The position numbers were made by a program, and so were the translations under genes. Of a stretch of DNA of 64,000 bases, positions 1-45,884 are shown piece after piece (position 1 is the stretch's first letter; the number at the start of each line of letters is the position of its first letter). Under the pieces are notes generated by a model, which saw only the letters and a program-made list of their open reading frames with translations, ran no database searches and was not told the origin of the DNA. The stretch spans positions 18,497 to 82,496 of the forward strand of contig SXSI01000047.1 of NCBI GenBank assembly GCA_005792285.1. Reading direction: 5' to 3'. This DNA is from Bacteroidota bacterium. Lineage in GTDB: Bacteria; Bacteroidota; Ignavibacteria; UBA10030; UBA8401.

Positions 1-3000
1 AACTTTAATTTTGTTCATTGTCTCTTTTGCAATAGCAAGATCTAAGTAATGAGCAGAAGTTGTAAACTCAAATATATCTCCAAGAAGAAATGGTTTTCTT
101 AAAATAATATAGGCAGTGTCTCCTTTTTTAGGAAGAACTTTTAATGAATCAAAAACTAAATTCCATCTCCAAGTTAAAACAAGCGAATCCTTTGCATTTT
201 TTTCAAAAAATCCTATTACATCCGATTCGTTGACACCACTTCCAACAGAAAATAAACCGGCGCCGCCAACTAAATCAACATCCTTAAATGCAAATTTAAT
301 TTTTTTACTATTCTCAGTTAAATTATAAACTGAAAAATTAACTCGCGTGGAAGGCATTGGAAAAATAAAATCGTTTTCGTAAGGAAGATAATGCAGTGAA
401 GTGTCAACACCAACATCTCCAAAAATTATTTTATAGTCGCTCGGTTTTCCAACACCACGATTGAAACCAAGATTAAATGGCTGCATATCCATGTTGTAAA
501 TATTTTTACCGCTCCATCTTGAAATTTCTGTATTTATTCCGATACTACTTTCATTTTGAAAATTTAATCTAAATCCATCAATCATTTCAACTTCATCTAA
601 ACTTGAAAGTTTTTTACTATCGGTAATTAAAGTTTCCGGCTTTGAAGAGTTTGTAATATCAATTAAAGTAAAACTTTTTGTTTTGAATGTATCTTGATCG
701 GTAATTTGTTTTGCTGAAATCAAAGTATCTTTAAATGTAATTCTATAAGTGTGATTGTTTTTTATTTTTTTTGGATCAACAACTTTAAAATAAATTTTTC
801 CTGTACTGCTACCTTTAACATGATTAAGAGCTTTCATTGAAGGATGTACATATCCTGCTGATGGTGCATTCGGAACTATCTTCACTACATTTCTTCCAAG
901 ATCAACAGAACCATCTGCACCAATACTAATTGCAATCGGACTTTCGGAAGGAGAAATATTTCCACCTACCCATCCGTAATCATATCCTGTAATTGCATAA
1001 TAATAAGTCTGTCCGTTTTGAACTGTTGTATCAACCCATTCATGTCTTAATCCAGAATTCGAACCTAAATAAAATAAAATTCCATTTTCTGTTACAGAGT
1101 GATAACCTGAAATAGAATTATTTATATCAAACTGAGCAATCGGTTTATAAAAAGTTGGATTTCCCTGTCCATCTGTAATTTTATAAATATCTTGAAACGA
1201 TGGATCAGTTGAACGATAAATTTTATAACCTTCAAAATCAAATCCTTGTTGACCAAGTGCAGCTAAAAAATTATCGTAAGATTGTTCCGATTTTGTATCC
1301 CAATAAAGTGTAACTCTTTTATTTCCTGGAACGGCAGTAAGTTTTGGTGCAAGTGGTGCTTTTGCAAATTGATAATCCTCGTTATAAGTTTGCTGGGCTT
1401 TATCTTTATTTCTGACTGCTTCATCTTTATCGGCACCCATTACAACTGCAACTGAAATTCTTTCTGTTTGTCCAGCTTTAAGTGGAAAAAATCCCGAAGA
1501 TACAAACAAATCATTATCACCTGAAAGTGGTTTCGTTGGATCATAAAAACTTCCGGGAGTCATAAACTGTCCCCAAAAAACTTCATCAGAAACTGTACTA
1601 AAATTAATTGCACCAGCTGGTTTGTATTGAACATTTGTTAATCCAATTTGATCAGATTCTGAAACATCAGTAACATCAAGATTTGGTTCGCCAGGAAAAC
1701 TCGTTCCTCTTCCTGAAGTTGGCAAACCATCTCCTTCGCCAGAGTCTAAAGTATTTGCAACTCCATCAAGACCAACATCGTCACTTTCAATTTTCCAATC
1801 GCCATCATTATCAATTCCATCATCACGAGCTTCGTCAATCATCTCATCAATATTTTCATCAATATTTTCATCAATCAATCCATTATTATCATTATCAATT
1901 CCATCTGCATATTTTTTTCCTAAATCTAAACTATCAACACTATATAAATATTTTCCTTTTGGTAATGAAAATACTTTACCACGTTTTGCTGCAGTATCAA
2001 TCATCGCTTGAGTAATTACTGGACTATTAATTTCTCCGTTCGAATTATTATCAATTCCATCTTTATATTTTTTCCCAATATCAGTGTTGTCTTCATCGAT
2101 CGCACCATTATTATTATTATCGATTGCATCTTCAGCAGTTTCATTGCTCAACATAAGTTGAGTTACAATTGGACTGCTTGCTTCGCCATTATCGTTATTA
2201 TCAATTCTATCTTTGAAGCCAACTCCCAACTGTGCGCCAAGTCCAGTGCCAAATGCAATGTGTGTTGAATCTTCATCGATTAAATTATTATTGTTGTTAT
2301 CAATTCCATCTCCAGGAATTTCATTCGCAAGCATTAGACTAGAAATTTTAGGACCGAAAAGTTCTCCATCACCATCATTATCAATATTGTCAATTGCATT
2401 ACCGGGAGTTTCTAAATATGAAATTGCAGCAACTCCAACTTTTTTCCCAGCAGGAAAAGCGCTATTTCCAATTCCATCTTTATCAGTCATCCAAGCAATA
2501 TCATTTAACAAATCGAAATAAGGAAGATCATCACCTGAATCACCATCACCGCCAACTAAATCTGCAAGCCACAAAGTTACTCCGGCTTTTTTAATATCTT
2601 TCGTTCCATCATTTTTTACAGAATGAAGAATAAAAAGAACATCGTTTACTAAAATTTGAGACCATTCCATTGCACGAACGTCCATCATAATTCCAAGTCC
2701 GCGACGCGCAAGATCAGTTGTGTCCGGAGAATAATTGTAGCGATCATATCTGTCATCTGAAGCTCTGTAGTAAAGTTCCTGATCGGCGTTGAATTGGTCT
2801 TTACCAAAATAACCATTCCATTTTCCTTGCCATCCCGGATCTTTTGAATCTGTCATTTTATCTGGCCAAGAATCCGGCCAAGTTAAAGGTTCATCACTTT
2901 TTGCAATTTTTGATTTTACATCTGGTCGAAGATATCCGCCAACAGGTTCAAAATTCCAACTCTTACCAGTTGGACTTGTTCTGAAATTTGGGATATCAAC

Positions 3001-3300
3001 TATTCTAATTTTGTTTCCTGAATTATCAACAACTTCACCACCGACAAAAAGTGCAACTAACGCAATATAATGTTGTCTTGTATTTTTTGGCCACTCAAAT
3101 GGAACTTCATCCGGTACAACTCCAGCACGACCTTCGTAACCATAATTAAAAATTGTAGTTCGAAGTTGATTCCCGTCGATATTAGTTTTTCTTCGCAAAG
3201 TTGGATCTCCTCTTTCTTTACTTGGTTTCTGAGAAAAACTTTCTTGGGTTACTACAAAATTTAAAAGTAAAAAATAAATTATAAAAAATGTATTCTTCAT
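1..3300 (-). CDS. Partial (3' end beyond window) giant secreted protein, at least 1100 aa, with multiple thrombospondin-type-3-like calcium-binding repeats (DxDxDGxxDxxD, e.g. DGIDNDNNGLIDEN and DNIDNDGDGELF) and an acidic IDEN tandem repeat. Start codon ATG at 3298-3300, 3 nt after the TonB receptor stop.
   Basis: I translated the minus strand myself. The reading frame is open and continuous from 3300 to position 1. The N-terminus MKNTFFIIYFLLLNFVVTQESFSQ is a signal peptide, and the frame reads through ...DGIDNNSNGEIN...DGIDNDGDWKIESDDVGLDG...YYYAITGYDYGW... The ORF track missed it because there is no in-window stop. Plus-strand ORFs 116-2594 in the track are antisense artefacts. Confidence 0.75.
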   Translation of the reverse strand, partial: MKNTFFIIYFLLLNFVVTQESFSQKPSKERGDPTLRRKTNIDGNQLRTTIFNYGYEGRAGVVPDEVPFEWPKNTRQHYIALVALFVGGEVVDNSGNKIRIVDIPNFRTSPTGKSWNFEPVGGYLRPDVKSKIAKSDEPLTWPDSWPDKMTDSKDPGWQGKWNGYFGKDQFNADQELYYRASDDRYDRYNYSPDTTDLARRGLGIMMDVRAMEWSQILVNDVLFILHSVKNDGTKDIKKAGVTLWLADLVGGDGDSGDDLPYFDLLNDIAWMTDKDGIGNSAFPAGKKVGVAAISYLETPGNAIDNIDNDGDGELFGPKISSLMLANEIPGDGIDNNNNNLIDEDSTHIAFGTGLGAQLGVGFKDRIDNNDNGEASSPIVTQLMLSNETAEDAIDNNNNGAIDEDNTDIGKKYKDGIDNNSNGEINSPVITQAMIDTAAKRGKVFSLPKGKYLYSVDSLDLGKKYADGIDNDNNGLIDENIDENIDEMIDEARDDGIDNDGDWKIESDDVGLDGVANTLDSGEGDGLPTSGRGTSFPGEPNLDVTDVSESDQIGLTNVQYKPAGAINFSTVSDEVFWGQFMTPGSFYDPTKPLSGDNDLFVSSGFFPLKAGQTERISVAVVMGADKDEAVRNKDKAQQTYNEDYQFAKAPLAPKLTAVPGNKRVTLYWDTKSEQSYDNFLAALGQQGFDFEGYKIYRSTDPSFQDIYKITDGQGNPTFYKPIAQFDINNSISGYHSVTENGILFYLGSNSGLRHEWVDTTVQNGQTYYYAITGYDYGWVGGNISPSESPIAISIGADGSVDLGRNVVKIVPNAPSAGYVHPSMKALNHVKGSSTGKIYFKVVDPKKIKNNHTYRITFKDTLISAKQITDQDTFKTKSFTLIDITNSSKPETLITDSKKLSSLDEVEMIDGFRLNFQNESSIGINTEISRWSGKNIYNMDMQPFNLGFNRGVGKPSDYKIIFGDVGVDTSLHYLPYENDFIFPMPSTRVNFSVYNLTENSKKIKFAFKDVDLVGGAGLFSVGSGVNESDVIGFFEKNAKDSLVLTWRWNLVFDSLKVLPKKGDTAYIILRKPFLLGDIFEFTTSAHYLDLAIAKETMNKIKV

Positions 3301-3303
3301 AAA

Positions 3304-6069
3304 TTAAAAACCAATTTCAAAACCAATTTGAACTTCTCTTGGCTCAGAATACATTGTTGGGAAATTAAACCACTCTGCAATTGTATTATTTGCAGAAGGA
3401 TCTTGTGAAATGTTTGAAGTTTGTAAAGTTTTATTTGCACGGCCTGTATCTCCAAAAACATCCAGCTCATTTCTTCTGTCAAACAAATTTGTAACTTTAC
3501 AGAAAAGATTAATATTAAATCCAGAGTATTGAATATTTTTATACAATCGAAGATCAGTTGTAAAATTATCTGGTCGTCTTCTGCTATTCTTAATTAAATT
3601 ATTTGAAGTGCTTTGTCCTTGTCGAAGTTGAGTTATAATTACCGGAGTATAAGGCAAACCGGAACCATATCGCAAAATCATAAACCCGCCTTGTCCAGCA
3701 TCTTCAAGTCCCAAAGAAAAATTTGCAGTATGTGTTTGATCCCAATCGAGAGAAGTTAATTGTTTTGCTGGATCAGAATTTCCAACTTGTGCAAAATATT
3801 CTTCATCGGGGGAAGAATTTACACCTTCAGCAACTTGAAAAGTATAACTAAAATTAAAAGTATAAAAATTTGAAAGTCGTTTGTTTAACGAGAGTGCAAT
3901 TCCACGAACATTTGCATAATCTTTATTTATGTACATCGAATATCCTGTTCCGGCTTGGACTTCAATTGCTGGTCCCGAAGTTACCCAATCTCGAATGTCT
4001 CGATAGAAACCTGTAACATCCATACTCATCTCATCTGAAAGTTGTTGTTGCAAACCAATTTCGTACATAACTGTTCTTTGTGGATTTAAATCTGGATTTC
4101 CAAATCCACCTTGCAAGCCCCCACTTGATGTTACTTTATATTCTGGTCTTTGATAAAGATAACTGAAGGATGGAATTTGTAAAAAATGTCCGTACGAAAA
4201 ATGTATTACGCCTTGATCAGTAATTGGATATGCAATTCCAAATCGCGGACTGATTTGTTTTTTTGGCGAAGCTTTTTTGTACCAATATTTTCTTCGCTTT
4301 TCAATCGCTGAAGTTGCTGTCTGATCATCTGAAACATCAATTTTACCATCACCATTTACATCAAATTTATTATTTAATTTAAAGGGTAAATAAATATTTG
4401 GATCTTCGGGGTCTGTTAAAACATCTCCCTTCGAATCAAAATAATCGTAACGCAAACCGACATTAATAATAAAATTATTGTATTCAATTTTATCTTGTGC
4501 ATAAAATGAATATTCAATTGGATTTCTTGTATAATTATCGTGTGTAGAAGTTGACTTGTCGAGAACTGCCGGTTTGAATGGTCTAATTTGTTGACCAATC
4601 GAATCATCTGCAGGTACAATTGTAAAATCGTTATAAAATAATTTATGTTGTCTTGACTCAAACCCAAATTTAGTTTGATGTAATTTGTTTAGCTGACTTG
4701 TTACATCAAATTTAAAAACATACGAAGTTGTATTTCTGTTAAAATGATGAAGATTGGTTCCCATGTTTGTAAAACTATATCCTGGTTCATTTAAAGAATC
4801 GGGATGTAAATATCTGGAATCTAATGGATCTTCAAATAAATATTCGCGAAAATCTTTTTGAAATTTTGAAAGATTAATAGTGTAAAAAGTTTCAATTCCG
4901 ATACTGTGTGATAACAATGCACTTAAATCGTATCCTTTATCAAATTTTTTAACGTCGCCGTCAGGCTGTAAACTGAAAAAGTGATTGTAATCTCTAAAAT
5001 TTTGTTGACTTCCAAGAAGACTAAAAGTTAATTTTAGTAATGGAGTAATCTGATATTTTATTTTTGTTTGAAGTGAGGTTTTATTTCTCGGATTCATTGC
5101 AACATACTTTCCATCAGCTGAATCTCCATCAATTGTGAAAACATTTCGTCCATACAACCATCCATCAGTCGAGTAATTTCTTCCAAAAAAATAAAATGAC
5201 AAATCAGATCCTGAAATAAGTGGTCCGCTTAAACTTCCTTCAATATTTTTATTTGTAGAAATATTAAAATCACCGATGTTTTGAAATATCTGTTCTTCTT
5301 TAGAATAATAATCACCGGAATAAATCATAAGATTACCAGCAAATTTTTCGCCACCATCTTTCGTGACAATATTTACAATTCCAGACATCGCATTTCCATA
5401 TTCAGCATTAAAAGTTCCACTCACAACTTGTAATTCCTGAATCGCATTACTTTCAACAGAGATTGATTGCGAACCATCGAAAACATCCGTTACAGATTTT
5501 CCATCAACCCAATATGCAACTTCACTTGCACGACCACCACGAATGTGAATTTCTCCGCCACGCCCCATTGTTACACCAGCTTGTAAATTTAAAATATCTC
5601 TAACTTCCTGAACGGGCATATTTTTTATTGCTTCTGCATCAACACGAGCTTCGACAGATGTCATATCTTTTCTAATAAGAGGACGTTCAGCAACTACAAC
5701 AACTTCATCTCCTATTTCTAAAACTGATTGCTTGAGATTAATATTTAGATTTGTAGTTTGATCAATTGAAATTTTTACTTTTTCAAATGTTGTTGTAGAA
5801 TATCCAATCATGGAAGCAGTTACAGTATAAACACCGGGAGGAATATTTAATACGGAAAAATATCCTTCAATATCAGTTGACGCACCTGAAGTTGTACCTT
5901 TAATTAATATAGTTACACCGATGAGTGGCTCATTTGTTTGTGCATCTTTTAAATATCCAGTGAGTTTACCTGTAATTCCAGATATAGCTGAATTAATATT
6001 TATTGTTATTAAGAATAAACTAAAGAGTACTAATCTTAAAGATGTATTTTTTAATTTTCGAATTAACAT
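3304..6069 (-). CDS. TonB-dependent outer-membrane receptor with an N-terminal carboxypeptidase-regulatory-like domain, a plug domain and a beta-barrel.
   Basis: Signal peptide at the N-terminus. The CarbopepD_reg-like region reads GYLKDAQTNEPLIGVTILIKGTTSGASTDIEGYF. The plug region reads SVEARVDAEAIKNMP. The C-terminal barrel ends with the aromatic residue ...QIGFEIGF. Confidence 0.85.
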   Translation of the reverse strand: MLIRKLKNTSLRLVLFSLFLITININSAISGITGKLTGYLKDAQTNEPLIGVTILIKGTTSGASTDIEGYFSVLNIPPGVYTVTASMIGYSTTTFEKVKISIDQTTNLNINLKQSVLEIGDEVVVVAERPLIRKDMTSVEARVDAEAIKNMPVQEVRDILNLQAGVTMGRGGEIHIRGGRASEVAYWVDGKSVTDVFDGSQSISVESNAIQELQVVSGTFNAEYGNAMSGIVNIVTKDGGEKFAGNLMIYSGDYYSKEEQIFQNIGDFNISTNKNIEGSLSGPLISGSDLSFYFFGRNYSTDGWLYGRNVFTIDGDSADGKYVAMNPRNKTSLQTKIKYQITPLLKLTFSLLGSQQNFRDYNHFFSLQPDGDVKKFDKGYDLSALLSHSIGIETFYTINLSKFQKDFREYLFEDPLDSRYLHPDSLNEPGYSFTNMGTNLHHFNRNTTSYVFKFDVTSQLNKLHQTKFGFESRQHKLFYNDFTIVPADDSIGQQIRPFKPAVLDKSTSTHDNYTRNPIEYSFYAQDKIEYNNFIINVGLRYDYFDSKGDVLTDPEDPNIYLPFKLNNKFDVNGDGKIDVSDDQTATSAIEKRRKYWYKKASPKKQISPRFGIAYPITDQGVIHFSYGHFLQIPSFSYLYQRPEYKVTSSGGLQGGFGNPDLNPQRTVMYEIGLQQQLSDEMSMDVTGFYRDIRDWVTSGPAIEVQAGTGYSMYINKDYANVRGIALSLNKRLSNFYTFNFSYTFQVAEGVNSSPDEEYFAQVGNSDPAKQLTSLDWDQTHTANFSLGLEDAGQGGFMILRYGSGLPYTPVIITQLRQGQSTSNNLIKNSRRRPDNFTTDLRLYKNIQYSGFNINLFCKVTNLFDRRNELDVFGDTGRANKTLQTSNISQDPSANNTIAEWFNFPTMYSEPREVQIGFEIGF

Positions 6070-6093: not shown

Positions 6094-7791
6094 TTATTGC
6101 ATTATTAGCTCTTCTACAAGAGAATAATTGATTTCTATTTTAGAATTTTTCCTTAATTGAGTTAAGGATTCAAAAAAAACTTTATCACTCGATTCTTTAA
6201 AAAGTTCAGCTGATATTTCTTCTCTAACTTCTTCAAATTTTTTTGATTTAGAATAACTTTTATCAATTAATTTAAAAATGGAATATCCACTACCTAATTG
6301 AAATGGACCAATTATTTTGTTTTTAGATATATTAAATAATGTGTCGGCATAGATTCCATAACTGAGTCTGTCTCCAAATCCCAATTCACCATTTTGCTTT
6401 GCGCTCCAAGTTCTTTCAGAATATTCAGTTGCTAATTTTGAAAATAACTTTCCTGAAGCTAAACTATCTAATAGCTGATTTGCAAAGTTTTGGTTTGTTA
6501 CAAATATTTCTGCAACATTTATTTCATCGGGAGTTATATATTTGCTTTTATTTTGTTCGTACTTATTTCGAACTTGAGTATTAAATTCTTTTTCTTCTTT
6601 TTTATTTTTTGATTTGTATGTTTTATTGTCGACCGTAATATTTTTTAGAATTACATCTTCTGTCCATTTTATTAGTATTACCAAAACAGAATCTTCAGCA
6701 ATTGAACTTTTAAATGTATCTGTCTTTTCTAATTCCAAGTTTTTTGCATTTATAATTATCTCATTGCGGACTAATAACCCAGAAATTAAATTTTTTAAAT
6801 CTTCAACATTTCTTACTCTCATTTTCTGTCTTTGATTTAACTTGCCCGACAAGTCTATTATAGAACCAGTTGTAATATTTCCATTTTTATAATTTGCAAT
6901 AATATTAGTTTTATTTTTTAAATAAAATGGAATTGTAGTTTCTATTTCAGTTGACTGCTTTGAAATATAATTTTTCCAGAATAAAAACAATTTCCGGATT
7001 TCCGTTTCGTTGAAAGTAATTTTTAATTCACCAGATATTTGATATGATAATTCTTTACTCAATAATTCTTTTTTCAACGCTACCAAATATTTTGAAACTT
7101 TATTTTTTTGATTTGCAAAGTCAGTTTCGGTAATAAATGGTTTTACAATTTTTTCTTCAACACGAATAATACTAAAACCATCCTCGGTTCTAATTGGAAG
7201 TGACAATTCACCTATTGGCATAGAAAATGCTGTCAATTCAATTGGAGCTTCCATTTCTCCGATAGAAAAATAACCTAGATCGCCACCATTATTCTTTAAT
7301 TTACTATCGGTAAATATTTCTTTAGCCAATTTTTCAAATGACTCACCATTTATAATTCTATTTCTTAAAACTATTCCCTTTTCATAAGTAGCAGCATATA
7401 AATGCCGAGCACGAATTTTTGTATTCATATTCAGAAAAGCAATTCTCATTTCTTTATCTGAAATTGAAATGCTATCAAATGAATTCTTATAAAATTCAAT
7501 TATAAGATTACTTTCTGCTAAAGAATTTATTCTACTTCTGAATTCTTTTAAATAATACCAATTCTGTTTTTGCGAGTCAGATAAAATCAGTTTTTCATTT
7601 ATCATATTTTCCAGAATCTGTTTTCGAACAACAAAATTATCTTTAACTCCAACTTTGGCGAGATAGGTTTTATATCGTCTAATAAATTGATCGGAGGTTA
7701 TATTCTGTCCATTTACAGTTACCAATACAGAATTCTGGCTACTAAACAAATGTGATGATATTCCAAATATTAAAATGAAAACTAAGTACAT
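6094..7791 (-). CDS. SurA/PpiD-like periplasmic chaperone with a parvulin-type peptidyl-prolyl isomerase domain.
   Basis: N-terminal SurA-like domain followed by a PpiC-type PPIase motif (RARHLY...GGDLGYFSIGEMEAPIELTAFSMPIGELSLPIRTEDGFSIIRVEEK). Confidence 0.7.
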   Translation of the reverse strand: MYLVFILIFGISSHLFSSQNSVLVTVNGQNITSDQFIRRYKTYLAKVGVKDNFVVRKQILENMINEKLILSDSQKQNWYYLKEFRSRINSLAESNLIIEFYKNSFDSISISDKEMRIAFLNMNTKIRARHLYAATYEKGIVLRNRIINGESFEKLAKEIFTDSKLKNNGGDLGYFSIGEMEAPIELTAFSMPIGELSLPIRTEDGFSIIRVEEKIVKPFITETDFANQKNKVSKYLVALKKELLSKELSYQISGELKITFNETEIRKLFLFWKNYISKQSTEIETTIPFYLKNKTNIIANYKNGNITTGSIIDLSGKLNQRQKMRVRNVEDLKNLISGLLVRNEIIINAKNLELEKTDTFKSSIAEDSVLVILIKWTEDVILKNITVDNKTYKSKNKKEEKEFNTQVRNKYEQNKSKYITPDEINVAEIFVTNQNFANQLLDSLASGKLFSKLATEYSERTWSAKQNGELGFGDRLSYGIYADTLFNISKNKIIGPFQLGSGYSIFKLIDKSYSKSKKFEEVREEISAELFKESSDKVFFESLTQLRKNSKIEINYSLVEELIMQ

Positions 7792-7794
7792 CTA

Positions 7795-9615
7795 CTATAA
7801 ACTTTTCAAGATTATCCAACCTTTTCCATCCAGAATAATATTTATATTTCCATTTTTAATTTCAAACTTTTTATTATCATAAAGATCAATCCAACTTGAA
7901 ATATTTTTATAGCTTGAAGCAGGCAGTGAAATATTTTGCTCACTATTTGAATTATTAAATGCAATTAGTAGAACCTCATTATTTAGTTTTCTTTCTACAA
8001 TAAGAATATCTTTTTGATCATCCCATTTTATGAATTTAAAAGATCCGGTTTTGATTGCCTCATAATTATTTCTTATTGAAATAATTTTGGTATAAAATTG
8101 AAGAAATTCCTCATTTACAAAAACGCTATCTTTTTGTCTTTCAATATTAAAAGGATGAGATATTTCATTTTCGTAAACTAAATCTTTCCAGAGCATTGGT
8201 TTTCTTTCGTCGGGATCATCCCCTCCCCACATTCCTGTTTCAGCGCCATAATAAACTGTCGGTGAACCAACACAAATCATCTGAAATAAAATAATTAATT
8301 TTTGTTTTTTAATTTCCTCTGTATTTGGTTTTCTAACTTCATAATCTTTTTTTTGCGAAACACTTGCATCGTGATCAAACCATCTATCAGGATTAACAAC
8401 AATACTTGATAATCTGTCCGTGTCGTGACTTTCAAGTGTGTTCATTTGAGCTTGCAAAACATCAGCCGAAAATTGAGAATATATTTTTTCAATTTCGGAT
8501 ACAAATTTACTGGCTGTAATTTTTGATTTATTGTCATTAAAATAATTTAACATGGGCGCAGTTAATCTGTAATTCATAACCGCATCAAAAACTTCGCCAT
8601 CCTTTATCCAAGGAGTTGGATCAAACATTTTATTATTCTTCCAATCTTCCCACCAAACTTCGCCAACTAAAAAAGAATTTGGATTAATTTCTCTTGTCCA
8701 ACTTCTAAATTCTTTCCAGAATTTTATTGGAACCATTTCTGCGACATCCAATCTCCAACCATCAATTCCATCTTCCGGATTTCCATCATTATTTGGATCC
8801 ATCCATCTTTTTACAATTTGGTGAATATGTCCACGAATTGATTTTTCTAAAGTTCCATCAACTTCTTTAAGTTCGGGTAATTCTTTAATTCCATACCATC
8901 CTTCATATTCAAATTCATTTTTGGTAGTTGATGGATCATCCCACTTTTTTATTGTGAACCAATCAATAAATTTAGAATTAATTCCATTTTTCTTAACATC
9001 CTCAAACGCCCAAAATGTCATTCCACAATGATTAAAAACTCCATCAATAATAATTTTCATATTTCGTTTGTGGCTTTCCTGAATTAATTTTAAAAATAAT
9101 TTATCTGCACTTGTCCATTTCCAAGTTGATGGTGAGGATGGATCTTCATTTTCCCAAATTATTTTATCACCTTCTGGATCCGGGCCGAAATTATTTTCAA
9201 CATGATGATACATTTTTGCATCATATTTATGTAACGATGGCGATTCAAAAATTGGATTTAAATAAATTGAAGTAACTCCAAGTTTTTGTAAATAATCAAG
9301 TTTATCAATAATACCTTGCAAGTCACCACCGTATCTTCGAAGCTGAGCTTGATAATAAAATCCTTTACGATCAACTTCCCAAGGTTGAAGTTTATACCAA
9401 TCACTTGTCCACGGAGAAACTTTCCAATTTTTTTGTTCATCATGCGGCCATGATCCAGTTAAAGTTTCAATCGTGGGATCGTTTGAAGTGTCTCCATTCC
9501 TAAATCTTTCAGGAAATATTTGATACCAAACAGCTTCTTTAGACCAATCTGGAACGGAATATTTTTGTTGACCAAATATTATTAATGGAATAAAAAGGAA
9601 TATTATTTTTTTCAT
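7795..9615 (-). CDS. Secreted GH13 alpha-amylase-family glycoside hydrolase.
   Basis: Signal peptide, plus all four conserved GH13 regions: IIDGVFNHCG, GWRLDVAEM, LVGEVWW and ESHDTDR. Confidence 0.85.
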   Translation of the reverse strand: MKKIIFLFIPLIIFGQQKYSVPDWSKEAVWYQIFPERFRNGDTSNDPTIETLTGSWPHDEQKNWKVSPWTSDWYKLQPWEVDRKGFYYQAQLRRYGGDLQGIIDKLDYLQKLGVTSIYLNPIFESPSLHKYDAKMYHHVENNFGPDPEGDKIIWENEDPSSPSTWKWTSADKLFLKLIQESHKRNMKIIIDGVFNHCGMTFWAFEDVKKNGINSKFIDWFTIKKWDDPSTTKNEFEYEGWYGIKELPELKEVDGTLEKSIRGHIHQIVKRWMDPNNDGNPEDGIDGWRLDVAEMVPIKFWKEFRSWTREINPNSFLVGEVWWEDWKNNKMFDPTPWIKDGEVFDAVMNYRLTAPMLNYFNDNKSKITASKFVSEIEKIYSQFSADVLQAQMNTLESHDTDRLSSIVVNPDRWFDHDASVSQKKDYEVRKPNTEEIKKQKLIILFQMICVGSPTVYYGAETGMWGGDDPDERKPMLWKDLVYENEISHPFNIERQKDSVFVNEEFLQFYTKIISIRNNYEAIKTGSFKFIKWDDQKDILIVERKLNNEVLLIAFNNSNSEQNISLPASSYKNISSWIDLYDNKKFEIKNGNINIILDGKGWIILKSL

Positions 9616-28471: not shown

Positions 28472-30211
28472 CTATTTGCATATCAACAAAGGTGAGACTT
28501 TAATTTTTCCATCAATAGAAAGTATACAATAGTAAGTTCCGGACGAAAGTGATAATGTATTAAATTTCACTTCGTATTTCCCTTTTTGAACTTGTTGATT
28601 GAAGATCGTGCTAATCAGCTGTCCGGAAATAGAATAGATTTTGATTTCTGCATTTGATTCTGAAGATGAATTAATTTGAAAAGTTGTCGACGGATTTGCG
28701 GGATTTGGAAATATATTAAAATCTGAATTCTGTTTTCCATTTTCAGAATGCTTTACAAATGTTACAATAATATTATCTTTTCCACCGGCATCTAAATATC
28801 GAGCTTTAAATTCCTGTAAAAATAAATTTGCAATTCTATTACTCTGAATGATTACAGTATTTTCGTTATTCGTATTTTCTGCTGAAGTAGACCAATTGTG
28901 TGAACCAGTTACAACTTTTCCTTGCAATGAAGTTTTATCTCCATCAACAATTGCATATTTGTGATGAAAAAATCCACCAAACGAAGATGGCCTTGTGAAA
29001 ATATCAACTCCTGCATTTAGCAAAGTTGCATATTCATTTCCTGTATCAGAATTATTATCCATTAAAACTTTCGTTTTAATACCCTGATTTTTTTTCTGCA
29101 TAATTATTTGCGATAAATCATCTCGAGTAAAAGACAAGACGCAAACATTTATCGATGATAAACTTGATGACAAACAACTATAAATTTGTGAAGTTGTTCC
29201 ATCAGATGGACTAAAATAAGATTCAACAGGAGTATTGTTTATCATAAACCGATGAGGAGTATTGTTAGTTTTTCTATTTCCAAATCTTGTTAAAGATGCA
29301 TTTGGAATTTCTGTTGAACTTCCCCACATTTCTTCGAACTCGCGAGTATATGCATTTGCAAGTGCGACATCCTGAAAAATTACAACATTTTGAGCATCGT
29401 TATTTGTTCCAGGATCTGATGCATTCCACGAACCAGTCCAAATAAAATCATCTTCAAATGATGAAGAATTTCTATTATCAAATATTCCAAATTTATTGTG
29501 CATGTAACCACTTGAAGCGAAAGTATCAAATTTATCTGTTATAAATGGAACACCAGAATTTTTTAAAAGTGTCATTGCCGATGTAGTTGAATTATCTTCT
29601 TCACCAATAAAACGAACTTTCACTCCACGGTTTTTTGCGCTAATTAATGCATTTGCAATTTCTGTGCCAACATTTCCGCTTAAACTATAAAGAGAAATGT
29701 CAATTGTATATTGCGCCAAATTAATTCTCTCAACAAACTTTGAACCTAAATTTGCAACAGTTGCATTTTCACCAAGTGAAACTGAATTGTTCACATATTT
29801 TGAAAAGTAAACCCAAATAGCTCCCGAAACAGAAAGTGGTGAAGCTGTACTGAAAAGAAAATTTCCAGAATTACCTGTTCCAGTAGAATCCTTCGAACCA
29901 ACTGAACAATTATAAATTGTCGCTGGAATTAAATTATTTAATTTAATCGAATGTGAAGTAACATTATCATTTGAACTAACTGAATCAGTGTAAAGTTTCG
30001 CTCCATCTACTTTTCCAAATCTAACAATACCTGTTGATTTAATATTACTATTCCAAGTAATTGTAATATTATCGGAATAAATATTTTTTTCTATTGGCAA
30101 ACCAAGTACAAGTGGCACAGATAACTGATTTTGGCAATATATCCACGAAGGAGTGAATCCAATAACGAAAATTGTTGTGAGAATTAAATAAATATTCTTA
30201 AATGTTTTCAA
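28472..30211 (-). CDS. Secreted phospholipase D (PLD)-superfamily enzyme with two HKD motifs and a T9SS C-terminal sorting domain.
   Basis: Signal peptide. The first HKD motif is HNKFGIFD...TGSWNAS. The second is HHKYAIVDGD...TGSHNWS. The C-terminal region of about 80 aa, NIFPNPANPSTTFQI...KIYSISGQLISTI...SSGTYYCIL, is a typical T9SS sorting domain. Confidence 0.75.
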   Translation of the reverse strand: MKTFKNIYLILTTIFVIGFTPSWIYCQNQLSVPLVLGLPIEKNIYSDNITITWNSNIKSTGIVRFGKVDGAKLYTDSVSSNDNVTSHSIKLNNLIPATIYNCSVGSKDSTGTGNSGNFLFSTASPLSVSGAIWVYFSKYVNNSVSLGENATVANLGSKFVERINLAQYTIDISLYSLSGNVGTEIANALISAKNRGVKVRFIGEEDNSTTSAMTLLKNSGVPFITDKFDTFASSGYMHNKFGIFDNRNSSSFEDDFIWTGSWNASDPGTNNDAQNVVIFQDVALANAYTREFEEMWGSSTEIPNASLTRFGNRKTNNTPHRFMINNTPVESYFSPSDGTTSQIYSCLSSSLSSINVCVLSFTRDDLSQIIMQKKNQGIKTKVLMDNNSDTGNEYATLLNAGVDIFTRPSSFGGFFHHKYAIVDGDKTSLQGKVVTGSHNWSTSAENTNNENTVIIQSNRIANLFLQEFKARYLDAGGKDNIIVTFVKHSENGKQNSDFNIFPNPANPSTTFQINSSSESNAEIKIYSISGQLISTIFNQQVQKGKYEVKFNTLSLSSGTYYCILSIDGKIKVSPLLICK

Positions 30212-33249: not shown

Positions 33250-35457
33250 TTAGAGTGAACCTTCAATGCTAAATACAAACTGTCTCATTGGTGCCACATT
33301 TGCAATCAATTCAACATAGACGTAATTAAAAATATTTAGTACTTGAAAGTTTAATCTTAAAGGAAGATTGTAATCTGTTAAATCGTAACTCGATCTAAAG
33401 TCAGTAATAAAAGAAGGAACTCTAATATCAGAATTTACAACGATAAGCTCTAAAGCTTTATCAATTTTTTCGATTTTACTTACGAACCTTGAATCAAATC
33501 CAAAAGTAAATTTATCCATTGTTGTAAAAATATTTGTACTCGCAACATATCTTGGACGGAATGAAAGTACAGTTTTATCTTTTGTATTGTAAGGCCATGA
33601 ATAAGTTAAATTAAAATCCCATTTAACCATATTGTCAAACCAAGTTGTACTTGTATTCCATTCAGCTCCTTGAATTAATGCCTCTGTAACATTCATGAAT
33701 TTAGCTTCCAATCCTGAGCCATCATCTTTTGCATATGCAATTGCTTCAATTAAATTATCAATTTTGTTACTGAAGACCGAGAAATCAGTTGTGATATTGT
33801 CACTAATTTGTTGAATTACTCCAACTTCGAATGATTGACTTTCTTCCGGTAAAAGCGTTGGATTTGAAACTACAAAAACGCCAGCTAAATTTATTGTAGT
33901 GAATAATTCTGCTGTCGATGGAGAACGATATCCTTTTCCCCAAGAACTTCTTAATGAAGTGTTTTCAGACATTATATAATTAACTGCAACTTTTGGATTA
34001 AAATTATAGTTGGATTTTTTAAGACCATCAACTTTTTGATAATCGTATCTTCCACCAACTGTAAAATTTAAATTTTCTAAATATGCGTACTCAGCTTGTA
34101 AATAACTCGCAAATCCCATACTTCCAGGCTTTGAACCAGTCGTTGGCAAGCGAAACAAATTTGCATTTACTTGATCTTTTTTTGCTACAACTCCAAATGT
34201 TGTATAAATCTCATCATTGACTTTATAGTTACCTTGAATTTCAGCATTAAAAACTCTTGATTGCGAATTATTCATTCCGGTACCAATACTATCCCATGCT
34301 CGCCAGAAACTATAAAAATAAACTGCTTTTATATCGTAAGAAAAATCTTCAGTTAATTTGTCACTCCATTTTAAAGATGTATTTAGTCTATCTGTTCGAT
34401 AAGTAACCCCTTTTTGATCATCTGCAACTGTTAAAGCGTTATCAAGATTTTTCCACCAAACAAAGTCTGCTCTGTATTGATACAAAAAGTTTGTAATAAA
34501 AGTTAACGATCTTGTTTCGCCAAATGGAACATCAACCTTAGTGTAAGTCATTGCTCTTCTTGACCAGTTATATTCTCTAAAACCATCGTCATGATAACGT
34601 GTTCCGGCAAAAGTAAATCCAATATCTCCAAATCTATGAGACATACTCAAATATTGTGCATTCATATACAATGGTTTGTCATGCCACTTCCATTTACTAA
34701 ATGCTTTAGGTGGATTGTCGTACAATTTTCCCAACATTCTAAATCTTACTTCAGTATTTAATGGAATTGGTCTTGTCAAAATATTAATTACGCCACCTAA
34801 TGCGCTTGAACCATAAAGTGCGGAACCGGCACCTTTTACAATCTCAACTCTATCAGTATTTAACATTGGAATAGATTCAAAAATTATTTCGCCAGTATCA
34901 CCAGTTAATAATGGCATTCCGTCGAGTAAAAACATAACTCTACTTCCGACACCGCGACTATATCCTGAAGATCCACGAATACTTACCGAACTTTCAATAA
35001 TATTTACTCCGGGAACAAATCTGAGTGCTTCGTCAAAACTTGCATTACTTCTCATTTCGACAGTTTGATTATCGATAATGCTCATACTAACTGGGACTTC
35101 AGCAAGAGATTGTTCTCTTTTATTTGCAGTAACAACTACTAAATTAGTTTGAATTTCTGAATGACTTAATTTTACATTTACAACTTTGGTTTCATTTTCA
35201 GTAATTTCGATATTCACAGTTTTCTTAGAATAACCTACCATCGAAACCGAAAGTTTATGTGAGCCCAAAGCCAATTTTAATTCATATACACCATCTACAT
35301 CAGTTGCTGCTCCTTGAGTTGTTCCTACAATTATAACAGTAGCACCAACTAAAGGTAAATTATCGTCAGAACCAGTAACTATTCCTTTTACACTTCCCTC
35401 TTGTGAAAAAGAAAAACTAAACAAAATCAATAATATTGAAATTAATTTATTAATCAT
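33250..35457 (-). CDS. TonB-dependent receptor with an N-terminal carboxypeptidase-regulatory-like domain.
   Basis: Signal peptide, CarbopepD_reg motif (KGIVTGSDDNLPLVGATVIIVGTTQGAATDVDGVYEL), a plug domain and a beta-barrel. Confidence 0.85.
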   Translation of the reverse strand: MINKLISILLILFSFSFSQEGSVKGIVTGSDDNLPLVGATVIIVGTTQGAATDVDGVYELKLALGSHKLSVSMVGYSKKTVNIEITENETKVVNVKLSHSEIQTNLVVVTANKREQSLAEVPVSMSIIDNQTVEMRSNASFDEALRFVPGVNIIESSVSIRGSSGYSRGVGSRVMFLLDGMPLLTGDTGEIIFESIPMLNTDRVEIVKGAGSALYGSSALGGVINILTRPIPLNTEVRFRMLGKLYDNPPKAFSKWKWHDKPLYMNAQYLSMSHRFGDIGFTFAGTRYHDDGFREYNWSRRAMTYTKVDVPFGETRSLTFITNFLYQYRADFVWWKNLDNALTVADDQKGVTYRTDRLNTSLKWSDKLTEDFSYDIKAVYFYSFWRAWDSIGTGMNNSQSRVFNAEIQGNYKVNDEIYTTFGVVAKKDQVNANLFRLPTTGSKPGSMGFASYLQAEYAYLENLNFTVGGRYDYQKVDGLKKSNYNFNPKVAVNYIMSENTSLRSSWGKGYRSPSTAELFTTINLAGVFVVSNPTLLPEESQSFEVGVIQQISDNITTDFSVFSNKIDNLIEAIAYAKDDGSGLEAKFMNVTEALIQGAEWNTSTTWFDNMVKWDFNLTYSWPYNTKDKTVLSFRPRYVASTNIFTTMDKFTFGFDSRFVSKIEKIDKALELIVVNSDIRVPSFITDFRSSYDLTDYNLPLRLNFQVLNIFNYVYVELIANVAPMRQFVFSIEGSL

Positions 35458-40216: not shown

Positions 40217-42496
40217 TTACTTCATCAAGATCATTTTCCTAATTTCACTTTGTCCGTTTGATTGAAGTTTGTCTGAATGGATTGCTAAGCGATAATAATA
40301 AACTCCACTTGCCAAGTTGCTCGCATTAAAATGTGCAGTGTGAAATCCAGATTCTACTTCTCCATTAACTAAAGTTGCAATTTCTTTTCCTAATACATCG
40401 TAAATTTTTAATGTTACTTTACTGCTAATTGGCAATTGATAATTTATTATCGTTTCGTTGTTAAAAGGATTAGGATAATTTTGTTCTAAACTAAAACTAT
40501 TAATTATCAAATTATCTTTTTTAACTGAAACTGTTTTTTGCATCGCCGCCAATACATCAACTTTCCCAGCTCCCCATTGATTATTCCAAGTTGTGCCAGT
40601 ATAAGAATCTGTTCGAGCAGTAGTTTTTAATAACGTTTTAATTTGGTCGTTTGTTAAAGCTGGCTTGGCTTGTAACATCAAAGCAACAGCTCCGGCAATT
40701 TGTGGAGCAGCCATACTTGTTCCTTGTTCAATTACATGTTTACCACCAGTTACAATGTATGGTGCTTCAGGATTAAAATCTTTAGATTTTGAAGCTGCAA
40801 TTGCTTGTCCGGGAGCAGAAATATCGGGCTTTTGTCCACCAGTTCTTGTTGGTCCGGGACTTGAAAATGTTGCATAATTATTTACTCGTGTTGCTCCATT
40901 ATAATTATAACTACTTCCGTTGCTCGAAGTCCATGACCATTTTGTTACATAAGCTCCAACTGTAATTCCTTTTGTTGAAGTTCCTGGCATTCCAACTAAT
41001 TTTCTACGTTGCGAACCTTTTGTAAATTCAACCCACATATCAGCATTATTTCCGAAATCAGAAATCCAAGCGTCGTAAGTTGCATTTGCAGTTGAACCAC
41101 TTGTTAATGAGAAAGTCAATTTCCAAACTCCTGCTTTTGGGGGTTTACTTGCATCAGAATCAATTACTTCAATCCAACATTCTTTTGTATCGTTAATTGG
41201 ATTTGGACCACCAGCAGCATTTGAAATTTTTACGTACCCTTCACTTCCAGTAGTTTGTGTTACAGTTTGTAATCCATGGTTCGCTGTTACTAATTGTCCC
41301 ATTGGAGTTGTTAATGAAATATTAATTGAAAATTGTTTTGGATACCAAATTGAGAAAACAAAATAATCGTTATTAATTCCTGCTTCAGGAGTGTAAGTAT
41401 CAACTGTAAATTCAGTTTCAATTGGTGAACTAACAATTGTGCTGTCGTGATGGATATAATCTTCACCTTCATTCCCGGCGGCAATAATAATTGCTCTTCC
41501 GGCTTTTGCAAGTTCATCATCAATTTTTTTCTCTTCTGCAACTGTTCCATCATGCGGACCATCATGTCCACCTAAACTTAAATTAATTACAAATGGTTTT
41601 CCGGCAGCTTCAGCTTTTTGGCGAATATAAGTTATCGCGTCAATCATTCTGCTTGATGAAAATCCACCGGTATTATTATTTCCATTTACAATAATTAAAT
41701 CTGCAAGTGGCGCAACTCCAATATATTTTGTAGTTGCATAAGATGAACCATTTCCCGCAGCAGAACTTGCAACGTGTGTTCCATGTCCATCTGTATCAAT
41801 TTGCTTTACAAGATTTGTAGGAGTTCCATCAAGTTCATCATTAATTTGTACTTGAGTATATTCTGAACCATAACTAAATCCAGCTGGTTTTGTGCCAGTC
41901 GAAATTCCTTGATCCCAAATACTTATAATTCTTGTTTTGGTTGGATCGGACTCAGATCTAAAATCAAGATGTTGCCAATCAATTCCCGTATCAAAAACCC
42001 CAACAATTATTCCTGTTCCTTTGTATTGCGTTCCATTTACTTGTCCCGAATGAACAAGATTTGCTTTAATCTCAGCTAAACTTGTGTTGAGTTTCTTTTT
42101 ATATCTTCGTGGAGGTTCAATAAATTTTGTTGAAGAAAGTTGGCTTACTTGTGAAATTTCAGAAAGTGAAAGATGCGCGGTATAAAATGTTTTTTCAATT
42201 GTATTAATCGAAGAACTTTTTATTCCATTTATAAGTGCATCTTTAACACCATCATCCAAATTTGTATAAACAATAACTTCATAAATATTTTCGCCATTTG
42301 GATTTCTACCAATCGCTTGTATTCTGGAATGTTTTGGTTGATTTGATTCTTGGGAAGTTCTGACTACATCCTCTATAAATAGTACAAACCGACTATCTAC
42401 TTTAGATTTATTATATTTTGAAATTTCCTTTTGTGAAGTTACTACATTGTTAAAGATACATATTATGAGCATAAAGCTTTGTAAAATTTTATTCAT
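40217..42496 (-). CDS. Secreted S8-family subtilisin-like serine peptidase with a T9SS C-terminal sorting domain.
   Basis: Catalytic triad motifs are GIIVGVFDTGID (Asp), HGTHVASSAAG (His) and GTSMAAPQIAGAVALM (Ser). The C-terminal domain NYPNPFNNETIINYQL...KIYDVLGKEIATL...SGVYYYRL is a T9SS sorting domain. Confidence 0.85.
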   Translation of the reverse strand: MNKILQSFMLIICIFNNVVTSQKEISKYNKSKVDSRFVLFIEDVVRTSQESNQPKHSRIQAIGRNPNGENIYEVIVYTNLDDGVKDALINGIKSSSINTIEKTFYTAHLSLSEISQVSQLSSTKFIEPPRRYKKKLNTSLAEIKANLVHSGQVNGTQYKGTGIIVGVFDTGIDWQHLDFRSESDPTKTRIISIWDQGISTGTKPAGFSYGSEYTQVQINDELDGTPTNLVKQIDTDGHGTHVASSAAGNGSSYATTKYIGVAPLADLIIVNGNNNTGGFSSSRMIDAITYIRQKAEAAGKPFVINLSLGGHDGPHDGTVAEEKKIDDELAKAGRAIIIAAGNEGEDYIHHDSTIVSSPIETEFTVDTYTPEAGINNDYFVFSIWYPKQFSINISLTTPMGQLVTANHGLQTVTQTTGSEGYVKISNAAGGPNPINDTKECWIEVIDSDASKPPKAGVWKLTFSLTSGSTANATYDAWISDFGNNADMWVEFTKGSQRRKLVGMPGTSTKGITVGAYVTKWSWTSSNGSSYNYNGATRVNNYATFSSPGPTRTGGQKPDISAPGQAIAASKSKDFNPEAPYIVTGGKHVIEQGTSMAAPQIAGAVALMLQAKPALTNDQIKTLLKTTARTDSYTGTTWNNQWGAGKVDVLAAMQKTVSVKKDNLIINSFSLEQNYPNPFNNETIINYQLPISSKVTLKIYDVLGKEIATLVNGEVESGFHTAHFNASNLASGVYYYRLAIHSDKLQSNGQSEIRKMILMK

Positions 42497-42526: not shown

Positions 42527-42838
42527 CTATAATCTATTAGTTGGGTATCGTCTCTTACTTAAATCAATATATGTTATTTTATTCGATTTACACAAATCCA
42601 TGATATTCTCTTTTGTTAATCTCCCCGTTGCTACAGATGAAGAAATATCATCTAAAAATGGATTTTCAATTCGCAATGAAGTTGAATCGGAAAGATAAAT
42701 TACAACGTTAAAAATAGTTTCATTCGAAGTATTTATTTCATCAACTAGCTGCGGAGAAATTTTTGTGCCACAAAGTTTTTCTAATGAAGCTGAACAACCC
42801 ACTAATAAAAATAATATTATGAAAATTAATTTATGCAC
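42527..42838 (-). CDS. Small hypothetical lipoprotein with a proposed GTG start (MHKLIFIILFLLVGCSAS...), 2 nt after the secA stop.
   Basis: The ATG-start ORF in the track (to 42904) overlaps the conserved secA C-terminus by 74 nt. The in-frame GTG at 42836-42838 gives a textbook signal peptide and lipobox with no overlap. Confidence 0.5.
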   Translation of the reverse strand: MHKLIFIILFLLVGCSASLEKLCGTKISPQLVDEINTSNETIFNVVIYLSDSTSLRIENPFLDDISSSVATGRLTKENIMDLCKSNKITYIDLSKRRYPTNRL

Positions 42839-45800: not shown

Positions 45801-45884
45801 ATTAATTTCGTCAACTATAGGATATAGATATTTAATATCCTTTGCATGTTTATCGCCAAATATTTTCTTTAAAAATCCGAGCAT
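42831..45884 (-). CDS. secA: Preprotein translocase ATPase SecA.
   Basis: A 1017-aa protein with the DEAD-like motor motifs and the C-terminal zinc-binding tail CPCGSGKKYKNCHG. Confidence 0.95.
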   Translation of the reverse strand: MLGFLKKIFGDKHAKDIKYLYPIVDEINIEFAKLSALTDEELKSKTAEFKKKIADDISELLFEITEAKNTLQKEISNEERVQLHEKISNSEDEIKNITNENLKEILPQAFAVVKETCRRLCGQTFDVMGQPLKWDMVPYDVQLMGGVVLHNGKISEMATGEGKTLVATLPIYLNALVGKGVHLVTVNDYLAQRDSCWMGKIFEFHGMTIGCILQQMDPINRRKQYNCDITYGTNNEFGFDYLRDNMVMNPEELVQRKHFYAIVDEVDSVLIDEARTPLIISGPVEVDDNKFAEMNERVNKIVSTQKNLVAEILTNAEKLLNENKNNEAGILLLRAQRGMPKSKKLIKLFSEGGNKKLFLETEAIYIAEQNKRMNEIIDELYYSIDEKSHIVDLTEKGRTLLAGNSDTEFFVLPDIAGELSQLENQNLTLEQIDQKKKDMHRLYAERSDRIHTIHQLLKAYSLYEKDDEYVVTDDGKVMIVDEFTGRLMHGRRYSDGLHQAIEAKEGVKVERDTQTLATITLQNYFRLYSKLAGMTGTAETEAGEFYDIYKLDVVVIPTNKNAIRVDTEDQVFKTRREKYNAVISEIEEKVKNQRPVLVGTTSVEVSETISRMLKRKNIPHNVLNAKQHQREAEIISLAGLSSAVTIATNMAGRGTDIKLGPGVQKSGGLHIVGTERHEARRIDRQLRGRSARQGDPGSTQFFLSLEDDLMRLFGSDRIASIMERLGLKEGEVIQHGLITKSIERAQKKVEENNFGIRKRLLEYDNVMNQQREVIYSRRRVALLGENLKDELINMVEDFISTVVNQRYDEGEFQIIEDEIKSSLLFENKIDTNTIESLGKDGLIKQIFDNALKFYEQKENDISSEAMRALERLAYLQVLDLRWKEHLRELDDLKEGIHLRAYGQKDPLLEYKSEAFGMFAEMIDMLTRETVQLVYRLYPNTQEQERLQRIRKTVKADRLRLTHEESVGFGLSRQNDEGEETNVQKKPKVQQIVADDKVGRNDVCPCGSGKKYKNCHGA

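Follow-up and report, generated by a model that had tools for sequence, protein, structure and literature searches.

A giant exported protein of Ignavibacteria as a probable surface partner of a TonB-dependent transporter in alpha-glucan uptake

What is the role of a very large exported protein, lacking any known domain family, that is encoded directly behind a TonB-dependent transporter (TBDT)? The question is raised by a 64,000-nucleotide stretch of DNA (the window) from a Bacteroidota bacterium of the Ignavibacteria (assembly GCA_005792285.1, contig SXSI01000047.1, positions 18,497 to 82,496 of the forward strand), in which a minus-strand gene running from 3300 to the window edge encodes such a protein, here called X. 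A first-pass annotation of the window had proposed a surface capture and uptake locus in which the receptor is paired with a non-SusD partner, and comparative genomics and the glycan-utilisation genes nearby lend support to that reading. With moderate confidence, we propose that X is the cell-surface partner of the TBDT in an alpha-glucan (starch) utilisation operon that relies on a type IX secretion system (T9SS) instead of SusD-type lipoproteins, and that the X family probably does the job performed by SusD in gut Bacteroides. A correction to the first reading is that a PorV-like barrel, encoded just outside the window, is the third obligatory member of the set. The genes of the locus that lie within the window are:

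1..3300, minus strand: gene X, first 1100 of 1198 codons, an open frame with its 3' end cut by the window edge
3304..6069, minus strand: TBDT, 921 aa, with Pfam matches to CarbopepD_reg_2, CarboxypepD_reg, Plug and TonB_dep_Rec_b-barrel
6094..7791, minus strand: SurA-like periplasmic peptidyl-prolyl isomerase (PPIase), 565 aa, with two parvulin domains (Pfam Rotamase and SurA_N) and a signal peptide
7795..9615, minus strand: glycoside hydrolase family 13 (GH13) alpha-glucan hydrolase, 606 aa, with Alpha-amylase (1.8e-53) and Malt_amylase_C matches and a signal peptide

Translation of the minus strand from 3300 to 1 gives 1100 codons and zero stops, in agreement with the earlier description of an open frame of at least 1100 aa. 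A full-length copy of X (P0001, 1198 aa, 99% identical) is intact in four independent assemblies, so the open reading frame (ORF) is not an assembly artefact and carries no frameshift; neither a frameshift nor a stop, either of which the first-pass annotation had accepted as grounds for abandoning its reading, was seen. Around 98 aa lie beyond the window edge. The gene had been reported as missed by the ORF track supplied with the window, and it is indeed absent there, but this is an edge artefact, as the lister leaves out any ORF that continues past the window boundary. The further claim that X would be lost in a naive annotation did not hold, since public records do call the gene, as 'hypothetical protein'. 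The ATG of X stands 3 nt past the stop of ORF 3304..6069 (...TTT TAA ttt ATG AAG...), exactly as had been described, and the preceding gaps are also short, at 24 nt between the PPIase and TBDT genes and 3 nt between the GH13 and PPIase genes.

X is a ~130-kDa exported all-beta protein. Its N-terminus, MKNTFFIIYFLLLNFVVTQESFS followed by QK, resembles a signal-peptidase-I signal when judged by eye, and the cleavage region of its homologs has the consensus ...A before the cut and QHVPSKERGDP after it. There is no Cys in residues 1-1100, hence no lipobox, and the combination of a signal peptide without a lipobox claimed at first sight was borne out; in P0001 no Cys occurs outside the C-terminal domain (CTD). 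X is a member of a large family without domain-database annotation. It matched none of the Pfam or NCBIfam families, except for a T9SS tail that stays under the threshold (Pfam scans at E<=0.01 for the window part and E<=1 for full-length P0001), and no already characterised family emerged, which had been named as another way in which the first reading might fail. Its homologs number in the thousands, all 'hypothetical' and ~50% identical over the full length, and the metagenome-assembled genomes (MAGs) that carry them are labelled Ignavibacteria, Bacteroidota, KSB1, Marinimicrobia, Fidelibacterota, Zhuqueibacterota and Delongbacteria. When 1.84 billion representatives of 50%-identity clusters were searched with a profile, at least 6676 of them proved related at E<=1e-3, with lengths of ~950-1600 aa, and 1009 passed the stricter limit of E<=1e-30.

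The strongest evidence for a joint function is the constancy of the neighbourhood. Ortholog loci were collected from 80 species genomes and 3 contig look-ups (83 loci), covering at least six phylum-level lineages (Ignavibacteria/Melioribacteraceae, Calditrichota, Neomarinimicrobiota, Fidelibacterota, Rhodothermales and KSB1), and each count that follows has as its denominator the loci testable for that neighbour. A TBDT gene lies immediately upstream of X in 78/78 and a PorV-like barrel gene immediately downstream in 80/80, while all 68 testable starch-type loci have the PPIase upstream of the TBDT. The barrel is followed by a homologous T9SS-tailed (carbohydrate-binding module (CBM)/CTD) protein in 67 of 72 loci, and a GH13 gene was found within 10 kb in 28 of the 40 loci that are fully flanked. 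Annotated ortholog loci additionally hold CBM20/48/53/X25 on the T9SS-tailed protein, LacI or two-component regulators, and more amylases. The ortholog locus is a conserved alpha-glucan utilisation operon. The cultured bacterium Caldithrix abyssi, from a phylum with the locus, grows on starch (PMC5317091), which favours our reading. In two loci (L010 and L011) a second X paralog lies near the starch locus. Two MAGs labelled Melioribacter roseus (L031 and L039) carry the X locus, and the only starch operon reported in the publication on the M. roseus genome is of the canonical SusCDE kind (Mros0758-0764; PMC3534657); two types of starch system appear to coexist in this one organism.

The transporter is of the CarbopepD_reg type, as had been stated, and consists of a signal peptide, a CarboxypepD_reg N-terminal extension, a TonB-box-like DEVVVVAERP, a plug and a barrel. 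It is recognised by the generic TBDT domains (Plug 41.7 bits, barrel 102.4 bits, CarbopepD_reg_2 73.2 bits), and its N-terminal extension matches that of the SusC homolog 9hfj_A (E 9.5e-5). Against the SusC/RagA model TIGR04056 it scores 66.1 bits, below the cut-off of 368.25, and just the N-terminal part, 35-240, is matched. The SurA-like chaperone and the GH13 enzyme had also been correctly named as neighbours. The GH13 protein begins with MKKIIFLFIPLIIFG followed by QQ, and its cyclomaltodextrinase-like NCBIfam matches all stay below their cut-offs; as a signal peptide is present and a T9SS tail absent, it is probably periplasmic. A dedicated periplasmic chaperone within a glycan utilisation operon is unusual, and the TBDT, X or the barrel are possible clients.

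Does the arrangement extend beyond starch? Four divergent paralogs were looked up, and all four keep the order TBDT–X'–PorV-like. One of these loci has a CBM9 protein, two GH10 xylanases and an SSF transporter; in another, a GH13 gene lies upstream and the barrel is followed by a protein with a T9SS tail; in a third, CBM20 occurs on a T9SS-tailed protein and there is a gene for the ATPase of an ABC transporter (OB_MalK/TOBE_2 domains); the last has GDSL and FG-GAP proteins. A degenerate DNA pattern written by hand to detect the CTD gave 0 matches in metagenome contigs, and divergent metagenomic X loci were gathered by a profile-driven scan in its place. This produced 80 further loci with 29-46% identity to the xylan-type protein, 62 of them non-starch paralogs. 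Among the latter, a TBDT gene lies within 1.5 kb upstream in 50/52 (51/52 with one frameshifted X counted) and the barrel is adjacent in 51/53. The first-pass annotation had suggested looking for recurrence of the receptor/X pair, and the pair does recur, in 78/78 ortholog and ~51/52 paralog loci. The gene order is TBDT–PorV-like–X in L107 and L111, and tandem triads occur in L137 (7160-14514 and 17861-23494) and L148 (2-6916 and 7362-14388).

The genes around the triad differ from one paralog to the next. In a Pfam tally of 172 same-strand neighbours of paralog loci, Por_Secre_tail was found in 39, Alpha-amylase (GH13) and LacI in 13 each, and GH94, GH130, PF10091 and CBM20 in 7 each, with 2 each for GH2, GH35, GH42 and GH32; sugar ABC and SSF transporters were also found. 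The PPIase is sporadic here (8/172). Thus the families of carbohydrate-active enzymes (CAZymes) change with the paralog, and the triad stays. Across 114 triads, the pairwise divergences of X, TBDT and barrel correlate closely (Mantel r of 0.89 for X/TBDT, 0.85 for X/PorV-like and 0.92 for TBDT/PorV-like; p = 0.001; values partly inflated by shared species phylogeny), which argues that the triad duplicates and diverges as a unit. By their content, a TBDT and a putative surface partner beside CAZymes of families that vary with the paralog, these loci correspond to polysaccharide utilisation loci (PULs).

How X might be held at the surface is suggested by its C-terminus, which lies almost entirely outside the window and was recovered from the full-length copy. 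The last ~100 residues form a beta-sandwich, and in a profile comparison (hhalign) this domain matches the Por_Secre_tail domains of neighbouring proteins with a probability of 95.4% (E 1.8e-8). It reaches 15.7 bits on TIGR04183, for which the cut-off is 23, and the Pfam sorting-domain model PF18962 gave nothing at E<=1 in P0001. The T9SS sorting domain that the first-pass annotation had proposed to look for therefore appears to be present in divergent form; judged from its profile, the CTD is homologous to type-A domains and of a distinct class. The consensus of this class is VVPNPY...GRGPR.IHF.HLP..C.I.IY...GELV...GVYIYHV.APG.GEKIGKFAIIK, and its scores separate X proteins (55-138+ bits, in X proteins only) from the ordinary CTDs of neighbours (<=20.5 bits). 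The CTD is the most conserved part of X (column identity 0.78-0.85), across paralogs as well, and such conservation would be less expected of a signal that is discarded than of a domain kept to bind a particular partner. Stand-alone relatives of ~950 aa (P0223, at L089 1803-4658, and P0246) keep the N-terminal supersandwich described below and end in an ordinary type-A T9SS tail; at least P0223 has neither a TBDT nor a PorV-like gene adjacent. The special tail thus goes with the dedicated barrel. These relatives may represent an ancestral, or 'free', version of X.

On the extended contig (L001), X is followed after 7 nt by the gene of a 345-aa PorV/PorQ-family barrel. With 203.6 bits, this barrel passes the PorV/PorQ family model NF033709 (cut-off 90); it also matches PorV 6h3i_F (E 1.7e-9), and it falls below the equivalog cut-offs of PorV (78.6/250), PorQ (98/220) and PorV2 (77/325). 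Two T9SS-tailed proteins follow, one of them a second GH13. After these comes a 458-aa GWxTD-domain protein (L001 20760-22136), which is not among the conserved neighbours elsewhere. In known systems, cognate PorV-like barrels retain uncleaved CTDs, as in PorU–PorV, PorZ–PorQ and type-B cargo–SprF (PMC10202324).

What, then, would X do once at the surface? Its anatomy, read from a structure model (AlphaFold 2, AF2) that is nearly all beta and from the conservation of its columns, is as follows:

3229..3300, minus strand: signal peptide, residues 1-24, found by sequence inspection, with predicted cleavage between SFS and Q and no Cys
2401..3222, minus strand: supersandwich part 1 (galactose-mutarotase-like), residues ~27-300, with many invariant Trp, Asp, Glu and Arg
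1642..2400, minus strand: array of acidic D/N-x-D/N-x-D/N-G loops, residues 301-553, inserted in the supersandwich, from motif count and conservation
1366..1641, minus strand: supersandwich part 2 and linker helix, residues 554-645
931..1365, minus strand: fibronectin type III (FN3)-like beta-sandwich, residues 646-790, from AF2 strands, Foldseek FN3 strings and a weak PDB match
16..930, minus strand: variable beta-sandwich domains, residues 791-1095, the least conserved part of X
1..15, minus strand: first five codons of the T9SS-type CTD (residues 1096-1100), the remainder, to residue 1198, being outside the window

The supersandwich (residues ~27-300 and 554-622) is split by a 250-residue insertion of calcium-type loops. 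It shows significant structural similarity to members of the galactose-mutarotase-like fold, a carbohydrate-binding fold of the glycoside-hydrolase type. Searches with X against PDB chains by sequence gave nothing meaningful (best E 0.43), and Foldseek against the PDB returned generic FN3 strings only (TM <0.1), which is uninformative. The FN3-like domain, with a weak Fn3-like match in 3mpc, holds the motifs YWD, FEGYKIYRS and GQTYYYA and is 0.48 identical across paralogs. Residues 791-1095, with a column conservation of 0.43-0.62 and 0.23-0.26 identity across paralogs, are a candidate specificity or spacer region. Of the Tyr/Gly-rich, beta-rich C-terminal half described at first sight, the beta content was confirmed, and the enrichment in Tyr (4.9%) and Gly (8.2%) over residues 550-1100 is weak.

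The insertion is the source of the calcium-binding label that X had received. Six [DN]x[DN]x[DN]G loops are observed (305/307, 367, 394, 417, 469), where 2000 residue shuffles of X gave a mean of 0.56 and a maximum of 5, and further acidic loops lie near residues 497-525. Invariant in 46 homologs are D307, D309, D311, D334, N336, N338, D367, D417, D481, D485, D497 and D501. The loops, which are of the DxDxDG class and probably bind calcium, are arranged as three loop-helix-loop modules (residues 301-478, which vary among paralogs, with 53% gaps there) and a very conserved acidic segment (479-553). The first-pass annotation had counted at least six thrombospondin-type-3-like loops; the number stands, and the thrombospondin (TSP3) identity was rejected, as the pattern DxDxDGxxDxxD has 0 matches in residues 1-1100 (regular expression) and Pfam TSP_3 does not match full-length P0001 even at E<=1. 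X and thrombospondin type-3 repeats share clusters of Asp/Asn-rich DxDxDG-class loops, but those of X alternate with short helices and X has no Cys. Of the profiles put forward for checking, CarbopepD_reg was thus found in the TBDT, and TSP_3 and SusD-like models were not found in X.

The acidic segment corresponds to window positions 1642-1866 (IDE.IDEMIDE.RDDGIDNDGDW..DDVGLDG...GEGDG.PTSG.G..FPGEPN.D.TDVSESD). Few parts of the family are as strongly conserved, paralogs included (0.52 identity across paralogs; column conservation of 0.80-0.84 for residues 476-550), yet the AF2 model has low confidence there (pLDDT <50 for residues 489-552), and it may mark a calcium- or partner-dependent interface. 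From these patterns, the variable regions 301-478 and 791-1095 are candidates for specificity, and contacts with partners may be made by the FN3-like domain, the tail and the conserved acidic segment.

Taken together, these features suggest the following route, of which the first step has its features in the sequence and steps two to five are inferred. X would be exported by Sec, for which its signal peptide is seen, and its CTD would direct it to the T9SS for passage across the outer membrane. The CTD would then be retained, bound to the 14-strand PorV/PorQ-family barrel encoded downstream, which would tether X beside the TBDT. There, the calcium-stabilised supersandwich and the variable beta-sandwiches could hold alpha-glucan chains or the oligosaccharides released by the co-encoded, T9SS-secreted GH13/CBM proteins, and X would present these to the TBDT for TonB-powered import. 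The periplasmic GH13 enzyme would complete the degradation, and the SurA-like PPIase probably assists the assembly of large outer-membrane components. Paralogous TBDT–X–PorV-like triads would serve other glycans likewise.

Several observations weigh against this proposal. Binding of glycans by X is suggested by its fold and context only, and the supersandwich residues conserved in starch orthologs are largely kept in paralogs of other specificity; these residues may serve structure or partner contact rather than ligand. The X–TBDT and CTD–PorV-like contacts are putative. A GH13 gene lies within 10 kb in just 28 of the 40 fully flanked ortholog loci, and 2 of ~53 paralog loci (L101 and L154) are missing the barrel or the TBDT. 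The Mantel correlations owe part of their height to the shared phylogeny of the species. Finally, the presence of both SusCDE and an X locus in M. roseus means that the two systems are not mutually exclusive.

Four other explanations were considered. The one that survives best, although we regard it as unlikely, is that X is a scaffold or attachment platform which, held by the barrel, docks T9SS-secreted enzymes and CBM proteins beside the TBDT, in the manner of a cellulosome or as an organiser of the utilisome. Docking would occur through the calcium-loop/helix modules, which have a dockerin-like layout, or through the beta-sandwiches. Possible clients are plentiful, since ordinary T9SS CTDs were found on 39/172 paralog neighbours and on 67/72 genes after the barrel in ortholog loci; the three loop-helix-loop modules vary in number among paralogs, and the combination of strong conservation and low model confidence in segment 479-553 is expected of a partner-binding interface. 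However, Pfam Dockerin_1 is unmatched at E<=1, so that the dockerin idea has no profile support and remains speculation, no cohesin-like partner was identified, and it is normally the PorU/PorZ system that attaches cargo with an ordinary CTD. A scaffold role would leave room for ligand binding and is compatible with the model above.

Less likely still is that X is itself a surface enzyme, the founder of a new glycan-active catalytic family on the supersandwich, as aldose 1-epimerases are catalytic on that fold.

It is highly improbable that X and its barrel are T9SS machinery, a variant of the PorU/PorZ attachment system whose adjacency to a TBDT is incidental. Adjacency of porU and porV is typical of Bacteroidota, X is of PorU-like size and keeps a CTD-like domain, and PorZ (5m11) is its second Foldseek match. 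That match has a TM of 0.09-0.13, however, the PorU sortase model NF033707 does not match X, neither a C25 peptidase nor a beta-propeller fold was found in it, and there is no Cys outside the CTD. On these grounds the identification of X as PorU or PorZ was rejected. The many paralogs, some in tandem (L137 and L148), each of which has its TBDT and its own set of CAZymes, are also unlike single-copy machinery. Equally improbable is a general adhesin or surface-layer protein without a role in uptake, which would suit a large, exported protein rich in calcium-type loops and beta-sandwiches but would hardly explain, without a joint function, the TBDT adjacency in 78/78 ortholog and ~51/52 paralog loci and the co-divergence.

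If X is a surface partner of the TBDT, the closest known counterparts are the SusC/SusD utilisomes. In both, the TBDT has a plug, a TonB box and an N-terminal CarboxypepD_reg extension and stands beside an obligatory surface partner, the loci contain CAZymes and proteins that bind glycans at the surface, with regulators of the LacI or hybrid two-component-like type, and the pair has been duplicated and diversified with the substrate. The partners themselves are very different. SusD is a ~60-kDa alpha-helical tetratricopeptide repeat (TPR) lipoprotein, whereas X is a ~130-kDa all-beta protein without a lipobox; a SusD-like or lipoprotein identity of X was rejected, with no Pfam or NCBIfam SusD match, no lipobox Cys and an all-beta model. 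X would reach and hold the surface by its T9SS CTD and a dedicated PorV-like barrel, the third obligatory gene, and the X-locus TBDT fails TIGR04056 (66 vs 368 bits).

The SusD-less TBDT loci for carbohydrate utilisation in Proteobacteria are not known to include a giant obligatory surface partner, a T9SS or a PorV-like barrel. Such loci, for example the CUT loci of Xanthomonas, resemble the X loci in SusD-less TBDT uptake of glycans and in the clustering of the transporters with glycoside hydrolases and regulators (PMC1790865).

With T9SS cargo that has a cognate barrel (PorU–PorV, PorZ–PorQ, and SprB–SprF or type-B CTD–PorP), X shares a conserved, apparently non-disposable CTD on a large surface protein and a PorV/PorQ-family gene, here immediately downstream (PMC10202324). 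It differs in that its CTD misses the type-A threshold and its barrel lies below the PorV, PorQ and PorV2 equivalog cut-offs, and in that the pair is tied to a TBDT and nutrient loci rather than to secretion machinery or gliding. In BamG–BamH of the Bacteroidota BAM complex, a 14-strand FadL/PorV-like barrel likewise holds a large extracellular protein via surface loops (PMC12578637), but the function, outer-membrane protein assembly, is unrelated, and the X-locus barrel scores only 17 bits on the BamG model. The supersandwich has relatives in the N-domains of GH15 glucoamylase/glucodextranase and of GH65 and GH94 phosphorylases; X is without their (alpha/alpha)6 catalytic domain, and its version is split by the 250-residue calcium-loop insertion.

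A wider proposal, which we put forward tentatively and as a whole, is that the triad constitutes an unrecognised third architecture for glycan import across the outer membrane, besides SusCD utilisomes and bare proteobacterial TBDTs. It would be the main polysaccharide-uptake module of the non-Bacteroidia FCB lineages Ignavibacteriota, Calditrichota, Marinimicrobia, Fidelibacterota, KSB1 and Rhodothermia, with the new CTD class fixing X permanently in the membrane via a PorV/PorQ paralog dedicated to it, and with a supersandwich protein loaded with calcium in place of the SusD lid. No description of the triad was found in the literature searched, whose coverage was incomplete, so that this absence is not proof. 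PULs are found and counted by SusC/SusD pairs, hence lineages without SusD look poor in glycan uptake, and the X family, widespread in non-Bacteroidia FCB phyla, flags glycan loci built around a TBDT in several phyla that are abundant in the environment. If the proposal is correct, X with its special CTD and PorV-like barrel would provide a simple genomic marker, the T9SS would be linked mechanistically to nutrient import and not to enzyme secretion alone, and a new pair of retained CTD and barrel would be defined. Cultured carriers (Rhodothermus, Melioribacter, Caldithrix and Ignavibacterium) make the model directly testable.

Elsewhere in the window, an S8 subtilase (40217-42496, minus strand) and a PLD-family protein (28472-30211, minus strand) both end in Por_Secre_tail, and the organism thus secretes diverse T9SS cargo. 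A 1083-aa protein at 47720-50971 (minus strand) has CarboxypepD_reg and OMP_b-brl_4 and no Plug match at E<=1e-5, and is thus another large TBDT-like barrel, though of a different type; at 33250-35457 there is a third TBDT with CarboxypepD_reg, of 735 aa. In SecA (42831-45884, minus strand, 1017 aa), the DEAD-like match spans residues 5-545 on a profile of 290 positions and the preprotein cross-linking domain lies at 367-502, so that the first nucleotide-binding domain seems to contain an additional insertion of >100 residues.

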